A stretch of DNA of 64,000 nt from Chiloscyllium plagiosum (lineage: Eukaryota): contig NC_057718.1 in assembly GCF_004010195.1 (NCBI RefSeq), forward strand, positions 53,627,615-53,691,614, in the 5' to 3' direction. Numbering within the stretch: the stretch's first letter is position 1; the number at the start of each line of letters is the position of its first letter. Shown here piece by piece: positions 1-60,373 of this stretch. The notes beneath the pieces are model-generated. The model worked only from the letters and a program-made list of their open reading frames with translations, had not been told where the DNA came from and made no database searches. The translations under genes were made by a program, and so were the position numbers.

Positions 1-294
1 CTTGACCTACCTGCCTATCTTCTTTTCCACCTATCCACTCCACCCTCCTCTCTGACCTATCACCTTCATCCCCTCCCCTACTCACCTATTGTACTCTATG
101 CTACTTTCTCCCCACCCCCACCCTCCTCTCATTTATCTCTCCACCCTTCAGACTCTTTGCCTGTATTCCTGATGAAGGGCTTTTGCCCGAAACGTCAATT
201 TTACTGCTTCTCGGATGCTGCCTGAACTGCTGTGATTTTCCCGCACCACTGATCCAGAATCTGATTTCCAGCATCTGCAGTCATTGTTTTTACC
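1..294 (+). mobile_element. Penelope-like element 3' UTR/terminus (family A), cut by window start
   Basis: Pyrimidine-rich UTR, hammerhead motif, then GGATGCTGCCTGA...CCAGCATCTGCAGTC tail; the same tail follows the GIY-YIG remnant at 16192-17052. Confidence 0.8.
165..200 (+). ncRNA. Minimal hammerhead ribozyme motif (family A)
   Basis: CTGATGA (169-175), A, GGGC-TTTT-GCCC stem II (177-188), GAAA (189-192), CGTC (193-196); stem I ATTC/AATT imperfect. Confidence 0.8.
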
Positions 295-6906: not shown

Positions 6907-7410
6907 TTTGTTGGGATTGGAACAGAGGGAGTGGAGGGCTGCACATTATGAGGGCGAGAGGTTGGAGTGGGGGAGGGGTGTAGACAGGTTGAGGCAGACA
7001 GGTTGAGGCAGTTAATGTCTCGGTGGCAGTTGGAAATGAAGAGATCGAGGGCCGGTAATAGGCCAGCACAGGGTGTCCAGGTGGATGGAATTTGTTGGAG
7101 GCCGGCGAAGGGATCCTCGGAGGGTGGGTGGGAGTCAGCTCGGAGGCGGAGGCCCAGAAGAAGTGTTCAACGTCACAACGCATATTGAATTCATTGATGC
7201 ATGGATGGAGGGGGATGAAGGTAAGGCCTTTGCTGAGGACTGATCATTTGTCCTCAAGTGAGGGGTGGTCTGGGGGGGATTCCTGATGAAGGGCTTTAGG
7301 CCAAAATGTTGATTTTCCTGCTCCTCGGATGCTGCCTGACCTGCTGTGCTTTTCCAGTACCATTCTAATTTTTACTCTGATCCCCAGCATCTGCAATCCT
7401 CACTTTCACC
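6907..7410. mobile_element. PLE insertion with inversion: minus-strand ORF fragment joined to plus-strand 3' terminus
   Basis: Minus 6907-7278 encodes SVLSKGLTFIP...EHFF (PLE pre-RT motif); plus 7279-7410 is a family A tail starting ATTCCTGATGA; flanks AGCACTACACTTT (6894-6906) / AGCACTGTACTTT (7412-7424). Confidence 0.75.
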
Positions 7411-11735: not shown

Positions 11736-12788
11736 GAATTTTATTCACTGCTGGGCCTAGTGATCACTCATAAACTGCTGCCCTGAAAGCCAACTTCACT
11801 TCCATATTTTTCTGACTTTGATTCCTTCCAGGAAACCTCTGGAGACATATTGAGGGTCTCCCTCTCATCTTCTAAGCTAACAATGCCATCTATGACAATT
11901 TTCTTCATACTGCTTCCAGCTTTATTGTACCAAGGATCATATCAAGAGATACCTCATTGACTCCGGGTCCTTTTGTTACCCCGATTTCATTTCAATTTCA
12001 GATTATCAAATCAAACTTACCCAGCTCCTCCAAATGCCAATATATGCTTTGGTCCTTTAAACAGTCAAGTTGGAATCACATCATAGGAATGCACATCATG
12101 TTTTCTCAGTTCAGTTGGTAATGCGACACTTAGAAGTGAGGCACCAAGATTGACACCAGACACTCCCATCTGACACATGGCCTCTTTTCACACTGGTTAC
12201 TACTCACTGCCACACTTATTGCCTTCAACACTGCAACTCATACCTTCGCTTATCAGTAAAATCAATCCCAATTTATTTAAAATGGGGAAAAGGATGGATT
12301 TGAAGTTAATTGGTGAAAGTGAGAAAATAAATTGAAGGGCCAAGATACAGAAGTAGGATAACAATATAGATGCAAAAGTAAAAGCTATTAGAAGTGAACA
12401 AACTTGTACTTCAAAAGCATTCAGGGTAAAATATTACAAAGACAGTTAAAATTCAGAGGAAAAAGTGACTATTAGGTCATTCTTAAAACAGTGCAATGCA
12501 AAAGAAAAATGTTTTGACAGAAAAAGAGAGTGTGGATTGAAGGCTGGAAGATATGATGGGATTGACTCTCAGAGAAGGAGCTTTCCAAGATTGTGAGACA
12601 TGCTGGGAGAACATTAAACTTTATTGGGCTATAGAGTTACAAGTTTTCAAAGGAAAAGCAATGTTTGATGTGAGAGCAAACAGCTGAGAGTTCCATCTGA
12701 AGTCAAAAGAGATGGTGATAATATCAAGAGACAGAGAAGGTGCTTATCCTTTCAGAAGTGTCCATGTGCATACTTGACATTTAAAATT

Positions 12789-12823
12789 ATTCTGAAGAAG
12801 GGCCTGTGCCCGAAACGTCGAAT
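12789..12823 (+). ncRNA. Minimal hammerhead ribozyme motif (family A), intact core
   Basis: CTGAAGA (12792-12798), A, GGGC-CTGT-GCCC, GAAA (12812-12815), CGTC, GAAT. Confidence 0.8.
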
Positions 12824-12880
12824 CTCCTGTTCCCTGGATGCTGCCTGACCTGCTGTGCTGTTCCAGCAATAAAGTTTCAA
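12794..12880 (+). mobile_element. 87-bp solo PLE terminus with perfect 15-bp TSD
   Basis: ATTTAAAATTATTCT at 12779-12793 and 12881-12895 flanks hammerhead plus family A tail ending AATAAAGTTTCAA. Confidence 0.9.
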
Positions 12881-14624
12881 ATTTAAAATTATTCTATAGG
12901 CCTGTAAAAGTAGCTTTAATAATTAATAGGATTACCTTATATTTAACTATATTTATTGTTCTTGTGACAAGTGGCTGAAAGGAAAAGCCAGTTCTGTAAA
13001 CATTGATAAGAAAGCTTTCCATGACAAGTGAATTGAAATTGGTTTTGTGTTAACACAACAAAGGTGATAGCAAAGCCATAGCCTGGTTTATAGTCCATCC
13101 AATTTTCAGATTGTATAATGGGCCACTGATTTACTTTGGGTCATTTTACATTGCTACTAAAGACCAATTTTAACAGACAAATATTTAACTTTTCCTTTAT
13201 CTACTCCCAAAGGTATTAAAGACTCCTGTTAGGAGCACTGAGTAGAGAGTTTCCTTGTCTGCCTAAAAGCATATAAATTGATGATACCTTCCATCATGTT
13301 GCTGATGGTCAAGAGTTCACTGCTGCGGTGCTAATTGCTGAGATTGGATTTGTCCTGTCTTTTGTGTACAGCAGATGCGTCAGCAGATAAATGCCAACGC
13401 AGTAGCTGTGGTATAATTTGTGGATAGCACATACATCAGACATTTTCCAGATTGCCAGGTAAATGTCAATGTTGTGGCTGTAGTATCACAGCTCGCTACG
13501 TTTAAGCTATAGACTGTCCCAATAACTTGGGAAAAATTAAAGATTTGTTAAGAATTGAAAATCCACTCACATATCTTCCTGGTTTCCTTGATTAAAGACA
13601 CTGGCAGCCTTGGGAGTAACCGATGAATGAAGAAACTAATAATGTTTTCTTTTGTATGGTGAGTACTGTATTTCCTCTTATATAGTATTTCATTATAAAA
13701 CGTGATGTAAAAATCTTCCAAGGGTTCAGCAGTAAAATCTAACCTCCAAATATACAATTCAATCTCACTATCTCTCATTGGATAAAATTTTAAACTATAA
13801 AGGTGACACTTGCCGGAGTCCAGCTTCAGATAGAGATTGAGGAACAGTTATGCTATCAAAGCTGGGCTTTGCATAAAATATCAGATTTTCATAGGGAAGC
13901 TCCACAAGCAAAGGACACACAACTCTAAAGAATCTACAGAAGGGGCTCTATTCTTAGAAAATGAGTAGGTTTATTGCACTATAGCAATAAGTACCAACTA
14001 CATTTAGTGAAGCATAATTACTAAGACCTCAAAGAGTTGGTGCAGATACATCTGTTCCCTCCTAAATCTAAACCAGAACTCCTTGTCTCCACCCACAGAC
14101 TGTGTTTCGATAAGACATTAAGGTATCATGAGCAAACCAGTGACGCACTGTACTTTTAAGATTATAGATCATATTAAGACACACAATGTTCCAGGATGAA
14201 CATTTCCATACACCTCAATAGCCTGTTTCAGCCTGAGTTGGCCAGTGATAGAAGTAGCAGTTCCTGTAACTTTGCTGTGTATAAATAAGCACAGTACCCA
14301 GACGATATATAAGTCTGAGGTCTTCTCACAGAGTAAATAGTTAGTGTTGTTAATGAACTTCAAGACATCTGTCTCATCAATAATCCAGTCTTTGTGCCAT
14401 ATGTTACATGGGATAGCATAGAAACACAATTCAAACTATATCATGCTGGCAGTGGCATTTTACCAAGAAACCATGTCAATTAGTCCCCTTGCATCTGAGC
14501 TGGAAGCTTGAGTTCAAGTCCCAATGAATAACTGAACATAGAAGGAACCTTTGTGATGCAAGTTCAACAGATATGTAGTCAGCCTGCCAATCCTTCCAAA
14601 TATTCATCACTGAAGAGAATGTCC

Positions 14625-16191: not shown

Positions 16192-17052
16192 GGTGAAAGT
16201 GAGAATTACAGATGCTGGAGATTAGAGTTGAGAGTGTGATGCTGGAAAAGCACAGCAGGTCAGGCAACATCCGATGAGCAAGAGAATTGACGGTGGGAAG
16301 GATATGGACAGGTAGAACGGGTCATGAGGGTGGTGCCGAGTTGGAAGGTTAGAACTGGGATAAGGAGGGGGGAAGGGAAGTAAGGAAACTGGTGAAATCC
16401 ACATTGATGCAGTGGGGTTGGAGGGTCCTGAGGCGGAAGATGAGGCATTCTTCTTCCAGGTGTCAGGTAGTTAGGGAGTGATGTTGGAGGATGCCCAGGA
16501 CTTGCATGTCCTTGGTGGAGTGGGAGGGGGAGTTGAAATGTTCAACCATGGGGTGGAGTGGGGGGCTGGTTGGTGCAGGTGTCCCAGAAATGTTCTCTGA
16601 AGCGCTCTGCAAGTAGGCGTCCTGTCTCCCCAGTGTAGAGGAGACCGCATCAAGAGCAATGGATACAGTAAATGACGTGTGTGGAAGTGTGGGTAAAACG
16701 CTGATGGATGCGGAAGGCAAGCCTTGGACAGAGGTGAGGGGGCAGGAGCGGACGCAAGTTTGCAATTCCTGTGGTGGCAGAGGAAGGTGCCGGAAGGGGA
16801 GGGTGGGTTGGTGGGGGGTGTGGACCTGACAAGGGAGTCACAGAGGGAATGGTCTTTGCGGAAAGCAAATTGGGGAAGAGAGGGAAATATACCTCTGGTG
16901 GTGGGATCTGTTTGTAGGTGGTGGAAATGGCAGAGGATGATGCAAAGTATACAGAGATTGGCTGGGTGGAAGGTGAAGGCTAGAGGAGTTCTGTCCTTGT
17001 TGCAGTTGGAGGGGTGGGGTTCAAGGACAGAGGTGCGGGAAGTGGATACAGG
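16192..17052 (-). mobile_element. PLE fragment with GIY-YIG endonuclease remnant and 3' terminus
   Basis: Minus frames give FTHTSTHVIYCIHCS, ETG...AERFREH and HFNSPSHSTKDMQVLGI, followed by family A tail. Confidence 0.85.
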
Positions 17053-24054: not shown

Positions 24055-24254
24055 GTGAAAGTGAGTACTGCAGATGCTGGAGATTAGAGTTAAGAGTGTG
24101 GTGCTGGAATAGCACAGCAGGTCAGGCAGCATCCAAGGAGCAGGAAAATCAATGTTTCAGGCAAAAGCCCTTTATCAGGCTTTTGCCCAAAATGTCAATT
24201 CTCCTGCTCCTCCGATGCTGTCTGACCAGCTGTGCTTTTCCAGCACCACACTCT
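24055..24254. mobile_element. Fold-back pair of PLE family A termini
   Basis: Minus tail 24055-24179 joined to plus tail 24178-24254; flanks TGCTGCAACCCACATG (24039-24054) / TGCTGTAATCCACATG (24256-24271), 14/16. Confidence 0.85.
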
Positions 24255-48920: not shown

Positions 48921-48996
48921 TCAAGAGTGTGGCGCTAGAAAAGCACAGCAGGTCAGGCAGCATCCGAGGACCTGGAGAATCAACGTTTCATGCAAA
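48921..48996 (-). mobile_element. 76-bp PLE family A tail truncated inside hammerhead stem II
   Basis: GAAAAGCACAGCAGGTCAGGCAGCATCC...ACGTTTCATGCAAA; AGTAGAG on both flanks (48914-48920, 48997-49003). Confidence 0.75.
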
Positions 48997-51439: not shown

Positions 51440-52665
51440 TCATTTTGGTTTTATGGCAATATTGCGTTAATAGCAAACTTTACACGTTCTGCGATTGCAG
51501 TAGCAGCATGAAACAGCTAGCTTCACCTGTTGCTCAAATGTTTGTGATAGCTTACCCTTTCAGCATGATCCGAGGTAGGCAGGGCACTTTTCAGGACAAT
51601 GAGTGACTTCCTAAGGGCCTTCCATGAGTTAGGATGACATGCAGAGAGAAATGATCTGATCAGGGCAGCCAATATCCTGCAGGATACTCCCAATTTCACT
51701 AACAGCTCTGCATGGTGAACAAACGGTTCAGGCCCTATTTATGGCCAATCTTATAACCCGTGGAACTGTAGGAAACTCAATGTGTACACTGACTAGAGAA
51801 TTTAGGTTTTCATTAGCTATCTTCCTGGGCTGATTTTTCAACTAGAACACCAAGGAAAGGAAGCTCATTTCTGTGTACCATTTCAAAAGCGAAATGAGCA
51901 GGATGGTGTCCAGTCAAATTCACTATATCCTTCCAGGACATTTATCTCAGACGTTTCAACAATAGATGCTGATAGCTGTTTCACGCTGATAAAATGCACT
52001 GGCAACTCAGTTCAAACCAGAAATGACATTCTGCCTGTCACACAAATTGGTAATATGCTGTATGAACTTCAATGATCTCAAGTATGTCAGCCATTCATCC
52101 CAAAGACTGGAGGATCATATCAAACAGCATATCCATTTAGCTGTTTGCAACAAGCAGAGAACTAACCAGATCCAAACCAGCTGCACTTGCAAAAGTTACA
52201 ATTCAATATCCAACATTAGATGGAATTCTGCAAATCAACAGAATGTGCAAGGTATATTCTGACAATCAATTTGGGGTTATATGTCTTGCTCACATTATGG
52301 TGCACTTGTACCTACTGAAAATGACATATTAATATGCATGGCCTTGTTATTTGTAGATGGAAAGAGCATGTACCTGTTTCAAAATAGGTGACAACTATTT
52401 GTGGGTTCATTTTCCAGGGCAAAGTCCTGACTGGAATAATCTGCTTGGTGGGAAACTTAAGCAAAGCCTGGCTACTTAATATGAATCAGAATTAATGGAT
52501 GTGTAATTGATGATACGCCTCTACCAAACACAGTCTATTTGCCATCGAATTAGCATTTTCCTTTCATGCAGTATAAATGTTGGGTTTCTCCTTAAATTTA
52601 CATTCTTGCAACATATCCTGAAGAGTTCAAGATGGAAACCTTTGACAAAATGTTTTTTCAGCAAT
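51440..52665. mobile_element. Ancient PLE fossil with inverted halves (family D)
   Basis: Minus ~51440-51770: PEKCPAYL...SQTFEQQVKLAVS; plus ~51940-52665: DILPVTQIGNMLYELQ, KYVSHSSQRLEDHIKQH (GIY-YIG-like), ending in decayed hammerhead CTGAAGA at 52618. Confidence 0.65.
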
Positions 52666-58898: not shown

Positions 58899-59063
58899 TG
58901 AGGAAGTGAGGACTGCAGATGCTGAAGACCAGAGTCGAGTGTTTGGTGCTGGAAAAGCACAGTAGGTCAGGCAGCATCAGAGGAAGAGTTTATACCCGAA
59001 ACTTCGACTCTCCTGCTCCTTGGATGCTGCCTGACTAGTTGTGCTTTTTCAGCACCACACTCC
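58899..59063. mobile_element. Fold-back pair of PLE family A termini
   Basis: Minus arm to ~58984, plus arm from ~58989 (TATACCCGAAAC); flanks TTCTGATAATTA / TTCCGATAATTA. Confidence 0.8.
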
Positions 59064-60232: not shown

Positions 60233-60373
60233 TAGCAGGTCAGGCAGCATCCATGGAGATAAAGCAAGTTAACGTTTGAGTCGAGATGACTCTTCATCAA
60301 AGCTCCATCAGGCTCTTCATCTAGATTCAAAATATTGGTTTGCTTTCTATCCGTGGATGCTGCCTGACCTGCT
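60233..60373. mobile_element. Fold-back pair of PLE-type termini (family E), decayed hammerhead
   Basis: AGCAGGTCAGGCAGCATCC...GGATGCTGCCTGACCTGCT inverted arms; minus TTGATGA-A-GAGTC-ATCTC-GACTC-AAACGTT. Confidence 0.7.

Follow-up and report, generated by a model that had tools for sequence, protein, structure and literature searches.

Insertion and target-site duplication

The analysed window was a 64-kb stretch (64,000 nucleotides) of the Chiloscyllium plagiosum contig NC_057718.1. Positions are counted from its first base, and the insertion is described on the forward (+) strand. A 15-mer at 12779–12793 (+) is repeated exactly at 12881–12895 (+), can be extended on neither side, and encloses 87 bases (12794–12880). 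It was found only at these two places in the window, even with up to two mismatches allowed; the chance of a given 15-mer of such composition at a given place is about 8e-9. The left flank of the insert had one match in the assembly, i.e. it is single-copy. The insert and its perfect 15-bp target-site duplication, as claimed in an earlier note on this DNA, are real.

The last two bases of the left duplication (12792–12793, +) are shared by target and element, and double as C3 and U4, the CT that opens the hammerhead core. That this CT lies inside the duplication had been proposed before and stands. The likeness then seen between ATTCT at the duplication end and the element is weaker: the exact overlap is just 2 nt, and a longer match requires a 1-nt gap. 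The copy starts 4 nt short of the modal 5′ boundary of its family and is without the extra G described below. Downstream of the hammerhead, the remainder of the pLTR piece (12824–12880, +) carries AATAAA at 12868–12873 and stops without the 38-nt tail, at the more upstream of the two 3′ end points of the family; 42 of the 43 tail-less copies sampled extend further at the 3′ end, by one element base or more.

Older relatives, both solo and head-to-head, were observed elsewhere in the window (164–245, 7279–7357, 16222–16292, 24102–24245, 48934–48989, and 58947–59054; 77–94% identity over matched parts). At 60234–60373, two short inverted mid-pLTR matches surround a more distant hammerhead-like repeat, which probably belongs to another, older family.

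Hammerhead motif

A minimal type I hammerhead was located at 12792–12823 (+) by core and fold analysis, using the motif features given in the available text of PMC4209133. The core (12792–12798) is followed by an extra base before helix II (12799), helix II of 4 bp (12800–12811), the second core strand (12812–12815), and a palindromic zero-loop helix III (12815–12818). The cut is predicted after 12819, and 12820–12823 form the 3′ strand of helix I, whose natural partner is absent in the window copy. In place of the missing 5′ strand, the remaining pairs are U.G and U-A followed by two mismatches, whereas the parent pairs 4 bp. When helices I and II were forced, the energy was −7.1 kcal/mol for the parent and −3.3 kcal/mol for the window copy. 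A single unit lies between the duplications, and no second one was found near the insert. An active hammerhead requires helix I, helix II, and a dimeric helix III that are able to form, which the window copy does not offer. Its ribozyme is incomplete, half of helix I being lost, and is predicted to be inactive. The hammerhead core at 12792–12819 (+) is real, but the motif makes up just about 30 of the 87 bases of what had earlier been described as a ribozyme-only insertion.

The insert folded no better than its shuffled versions (z −0.24), and an Rfam scan of the window at gathering thresholds matched no family. A second match to the loose hammerhead core pattern (52618–52639) was within chance expectation. 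Among the older copies in the divergence comparison, the older subfamilies have a mismatched third helix I pair, and the young family has the full 4-bp helix.

Parent element

When the insert was searched against its own genome, 40 scored copies were obtained (96–100% identity), and its last 24 bases had 19,796 exact genome matches. Upstream, longer copies reach the final part of an ORF that encodes a CX4CX2C motif and a GIY-YIG domain. The exact hammerhead core lies 156 nt behind the stop codon of this ORF, together with the exact 3′ 24-mer and on the same strand, in 5 of 20 ORF-bearing loci (L157, L161, L164, L167, and L168); L156 has the core alone. The motif C-X4-C-X2-C was present in 20/20 translated ORF-bearing loci, and the ORF matched PF01541 above the cut-off (E 4e-6 to 4e-5). 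A CX2-5CxxC motif upstream of GIY-YIG is given as the mark of endonuclease-positive (EN+) Penelope-like elements (PLEs) of the Neptune/Nematis type in the available text of PMC8557442, and the layout is, as read from the sequence, that of such an element. The parent pLTR also contains a minimal type I hammerhead with the features listed in PMC4209133. The optional tail and inverted copies expected of a PLE pLTR were both found, in 55 tailed arms out of 100 and in 23 head-to-head pairs.

All 87 bases of the insert are parent pLTR, with no foreign head or tail. By its sequence, the insert belongs to a young GIY-YIG Penelope-like element, as the end of its terminal repeat (pLTR) that carries the hammerhead. 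The suggestion that Penelope-like machinery had made it is supported by the same-strand position of its sequence, 156 nt behind the GIY-YIG ORF.

A search for reverse transcriptase (RT) families in two partial parent ORFs gave no match. The ORF-bearing loci were all partial, and a full-length parent was not found. Locus L111 looked tandem and was considered as such a parent, and was rejected: it held captured host DNA and no ORF. At L111:2880–5900, two direct pLTRs plus an inverted tailed arm enclose about 2.5 kb of DNA foreign to the element, including an exon-like stretch. This composite is flanked by a 14-bp duplication, the first ~160 nt of its non-element DNA also follow a pLTR in L063, and it looks like host-DNA capture of the kind described in the available part of PMC3846280.

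End points of the copies

Two samples were drawn, both from one chromosome. Sample 1 comprised all of the first 100 matches on contig C1, picked by the 3′ 24-mer alone. Sample 2 comprised 75 new sites among the first 100 matches ending exactly at the boundary A (see below), with 85 arms (52 inverted and 33 solo).

In sample 1, 52 of 100 arms had their 5′ end 0–7 nt upstream of C3 (28 of them at 3 or 4 nt), 17 ended within 10 nt downstream of C3, 16 further downstream, and 15 further upstream. The end rate per nt was 0.35%, then 2.2%, then 15% in the 8-nt zone, and then about 1%. When counted per locus cluster, the longest arm ended in this zone in 44/72. Eleven arms reached 5–7 nt upstream, slightly above what chance extension from one fixed base would give. 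Genome-wide, 2,374 copies match up to the A located 4 nt upstream of C3 and not one base beyond, and the 24-mer just upstream of this boundary has 5,368 matches (~27% of those for the 3′ 24-mer). The lengths are thus not the continuum that the earlier note had set against its own reading; the ends are discrete.

These counts bear on ordinary random 5′ truncation of copying begun at the element 3′ end, which is common among PLE insertions (PMC8557442, available text). The range of lengths is in its favour, with 33/100 arms ending inside the stub and 15 extending upstream. Nevertheless, it is very unlikely: the rise of the end rate from 0.35% to 15% per nt and its return to about 1% already largely refute it, and the G excess at one base (see below) counts against it as well.

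The 3′ ends of sample 1 were bimodal: 43 lay at the site used by the window copy, 55 carried a tail of 33–46 nt, and 2 ran into the element body (n = 100). The two sites are ~38 nt apart. Among the arms were 23 head-to-head pairs, 40 solos, and 5 tandem arms, and a further 9 had an inverted partner in which the exact 24-mer was missing. Exactly one arm was tailed in 23/23 head-to-head pairs (~1e-7 if the arms were independent), and 18 of the pairs had a 12–17-bp duplication. Tail-less solos that start near the boundary, like the window copy, made up 11 of the 100 arms, which by extrapolation gives ~2,000 tail-less solos genome-wide.

Target and element overlapped by 2–5 nt in 10 of the 13 solos with a duplication of at least 8 bp and no extra bases, as against 18% expected (p 6e-6); 8 more solos with such duplications carried extra bases. 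Microhomology-guided 5′ joining, first suggested from the window copy, is therefore a trend of the family. A family-wide preference for ATT targets was not seen among the duplications of the unbiased sample 1; the top hits of the own-genome search are biased by the query.

A solo pLTR could also be a relic of recombination or deletion in a longer insertion, as was proposed for duplication-less solo pLTRs in a rotifer (PMC3846280, available text). Such an origin is hardly credible for this insert, where a perfect duplication abuts both ends and divergence is almost nil, and thousands of copies have the same two ends.

For 18 of the 52 inverted arms of sample 2, both partners extended to the same A and met there as a perfect palindrome. 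Another common junction was observed in 11/52 (L173, L191–L193, L195, L205, L223, L231, L238, L240, and L242), in which the partner ends 52 nt further in, where 5 nt of the palindrome-centre sequence are repeated. From its sequence, this shared junction is best read as a recurrent microhomology skip or deletion.

The 5′ edge

The edge A lies in a pyrimidine-A-N-W-pyrimidine context, which resembles the initiator (Inr) consensus. A TTAT motif starts 28–32 nt upstream of it in 13 of 14 representative upstream regions, most of which are from older subfamilies; such a distance is usual for a TATA box. The motif is only a weak match to TATA, particularly in the young family, and something other than promoter function could account for its conservation.

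A G preceded the boundary A in 19 of the 33 solos of sample 2, and in 15/25 after 8 solos with element-derived upstream bases (element snippets, recognised by eye) were set aside. Where target and element did not overlap, the count was 12/16. The signal was weak in sample 1 (2 of 8 host-flanked solos). Pooled, G was found in 17/33 host-flanked solos compared to a 26% background (p 0.002), and at other break points, used as a control, in 3/23 (Fisher p 0.003 against 17/33). A clean single extra G between duplication and element was present in just 2 copies. An extra 5′ G in full-length L1 insertions has been read as the mRNA cap (PMC11702581, available text), and the Penelope transcription start lies within the pLTR (PMC2377424, available text). 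The sharp 5′ edge thus likely marks the capped start of the element RNA, and the boundary would be a Pol II start with an Inr-like A and a TATA-like motif ~30 nt upstream. In Drosophila Penelope, the start is placed 46 nt plus an intron upstream of the ribozyme (available parts of PMC2377424 and PMC4209133); it is further from the ribozyme, and so the layout seen here is not general.

Ribozyme cleavage was considered as the maker of the 5′ end and rejected, since the predicted cut falls 26 nt inside the insert, 28 nt beyond C3, and just 1 of 100 arms ended within 1 nt of it. Ribozyme cleavage plays no part in setting the ends. An intron ending at helix I, as in Drosophila Penelope, was rejected as well, with no AG before the boundary in 14 upstream regions. 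No leader common to the short copies was found. In the older relative near 7279 in the window, the boundary A is likewise the first base, and a G stands before it.

With the same parent and the same internal starts, the RT might instead stall on, or drop off, a longer RNA at the protein-bound or structured edge of the ribozyme. The boundary does coincide with the first base of hammerhead helix I, and the anole PLE protein assists the folding of its ribozyme (PMC11167929). We consider such a stall improbable, since the RT would copy the 3′ strand of helix I first and the helix should already be open at the boundary base. Moreover, neither the G excess nor a conserved motif at TATA spacing is predicted by it.

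Age of the insertion and the SINE question

Outside the selection pattern, 47 of 65 comparable arms were identical to the window copy over 65 nt, in line with the youth that the earlier note had assigned to the insertion. Divergence was ~0.5% without the misaligned arm L050, which gives 14/33 mismatches. The identical arms included 37/51 short and 10/14 long ones. Among the 51 short arms, no variant marking a clade of short copies was found, with low power in a family that is ~0.5% diverged; one substitution was common to two short arms, and all others were single. A SINE head bearing its own promoter (tRNA, 5S, or 7SL derived) was absent from the 87 bases, all of which are pLTR, and from the Rfam results for the window.

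The insert had been put forward as a ribozyme-only, SINE-like element, and a short non-autonomous family, its copies transcribed and re-copied by the PLE enzyme, would fit the fixed ends and the high copy number. The ratio of short to longer copies is at least ~3 to 1. The Penelope promoter is internal and TATA-less (PMC2377424, available text), so a stub could retain some activity, and if a master stub were identical to the parent, no diagnostic variants would be expected. Against such a family stand the equal identity of short and long arms without a short-copy clade, the lack of any foreign head or tail, and the absence of the conserved upstream motif from the stubs. By analogy with the anole element, the stubs would also lack the ORF stretch for RT binding, and the ribozyme of the window copy is incomplete. 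This explanation is judged quite unlikely, and the SINE-like reading is not supported. The insert is most probably neither an element of its own nor a ribozyme-only SINE. The stubs would be dead, if the anole element is a guide, being without the upstream promoter motif and without the ORF sequence downstream of the RT start site.

Proposed mechanism

The window insertion is a real, recent, and ordinary member of an abundant class, and its origin is assigned by class, since its own start is 4 nt short and lacks the extra G. The best explanation of the class, which we hold to be probable, is a run-off (strong-stop-like) cDNA from an internal RT start near the RNA 5′ end, joined by microhomology. 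Transcription would begin in the upstream pLTR, with the A that lies 4 nt before C3 as its first base, and the enzyme would bind near the ORF start on its own RNA. Both target strands would be nicked with a 9–17-nt stagger, and reverse transcription would be primed internally, either ~93 or ~130 nt away from the RNA start, so that the cDNA would run off the capped RNA 5′ end after that distance. A solo would result from joining of the cDNA to the other target end, leaving a promoterless stub; a head-to-head pair would result when both nicked strands are extended, one per start site, and the two cDNAs are joined. For the window copy, a run-off after ~93 nt, 2-nt microhomology joining to the other target strand, and slight trimming may be envisaged.

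In the anole PLE, both target strands are extended by the protein, its two internal start sites delimit the tail, 172 nt of the ORF are needed on the template, and ribozyme cleavage is dispensable (PMC11167929). The two start sites, the two-strand extension, and the need for the ORF have been shown for the anole element only. By analogy, the two 3′ ends seen here may correspond to the two RT start sites shown in vitro for that element, and in a pair each nicked strand would have been extended from a different one of these sites. For this family, the start site, the cap, and the order of events are inferred from the sequences of the copies. Self-priming, proposed for palindromes in PMC3846280 (available text), could also give palindromes.

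More tentatively, and with doubt prevailing, the stubs may be aborted strong-stop intermediates of the normal Penelope cycle, in which a dimeric enzyme would prime both target strands at two fixed sites near the RNA 5′ end and run to the cap. To copy the rest, it would have to switch to the RNA 3′ end, where the ribozyme region is repeated, as retroviruses do. If true, such jumps would explain the regeneration of pseudo-LTRs and partial tandems, which PMC2377424 names as unexplained.

Implications

Under the run-off explanation, thousands of near-identical recent products record in vivo where a Penelope enzyme starts and stops. Three predictions follow from the class that are testable in the existing in vitro PLE system: the exact base at which transcription starts, a G derived from the cap, and the use of a single RT start site on each target strand. 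The class also bears on a question still open, the formation of pseudo-LTRs and inverted ends in PLEs, and it is a warning that fixed ends and a high copy number do not make a SINE. Dispersed single and opposite-strand PLE hammerheads, tails, and inverted pLTRs are already published (available texts of PMC4209133, PMC3846280, and PMC8557442). For PLEs, a fixed 5′ edge, a cap G or G excess, a strict one-tail rule, or a strong-stop model was not found in a literature search that covered mainly open journals.

Comparison with known systems

Cervera and De la Pena 2014 (PMC4209133) described minimal type I hammerheads in the pLTRs of metazoan PLEs, dispersed singly or as opposite-strand pairs. The present motif is alike in sequence, including the core, the extra base before helix II, G10.1-C11.1, the palindromic zero-loop helix III, and the 4-bp helix I of the parent. 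It is also alike in dispersal, the published motifs being mostly single or 100–700 bp apart on opposite strands. That paper, in its available part, ascribes single motifs to truncated PLEs, whereas here the 5′ ends pile up at one point with a G excess.

The anole Poseidon element PAc (Frangieh et al. 2024, PMC11167929) is similar in its two end points delimiting a 30–40-nt tail, in the use of both strands, and in the dispensability of cleavage. PAc prefers ATT, and the duplication of the window copy begins with ATT, although the duplications of sample 1 are not generally ATT-initial. The parent differs from PAc by its CX4CX2C linker of the Neptune/Nematis type. In the PAc study, no strand difference in the RT start site was seen, in contrast to one site per strand in 23/23 genomic pairs here.

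Insertions of EN+ PLEs (Arkhipova et al. 2013, PMC3846280; Craig et al. 2021, PMC8557442) resemble the present ones in head-to-head arms, a tail at one end, and 5′ microhomology, and TATA/Inr-like motifs were likewise noted in a pLTR. In their available parts, these papers favour self-priming or endonuclease resolution for palindromes plus tail; the units here are ~93 and 130 nt long with a fixed 5′ edge. The Schistosoma hammerhead SINEs (reviewed in PMC6765202; available text) are also short, dispersed, hammerhead-bearing retroposed repeats. They have an apparent Pol III promoter of their own ahead of the ribozyme, whereas the insert here is nothing but parent pLTR.

Non-LTR retrozymes (bioRxiv 10.64898/2026.07.22.740005; available text), with a published PLE origin for the tandem ones, share a non-coding, pLTR-derived sequence, a type I hammerhead, and dispersed monomers with the class studied here. 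They need at least two tandem ribozyme units with complete hammerheads, whereas the window copy is a single incomplete unit. A tandem hammerhead derivative of the same family, amplified and non-coding, with units of ~224 and 320 bp, was observed at L018, L023, L078, L103, and L121–L150. In this derivative, the sequence passes abruptly from the beginning of the element body to the pLTR, by one junction in 20 loci and by another in 7; the loci were chosen by a body-segment search, and the counts are not frequencies. The tandem derivative fits the definition of a non-LTR retrozyme better than the window insert does.

Retroviral minus-strand strong-stop DNA is tRNA-primed near the RNA 5′ end and runs off at the cap. 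The model proposed here is similar, and differs in that the primer would be nicked target DNA, integration would be direct, and strand transfer is inferred at most.
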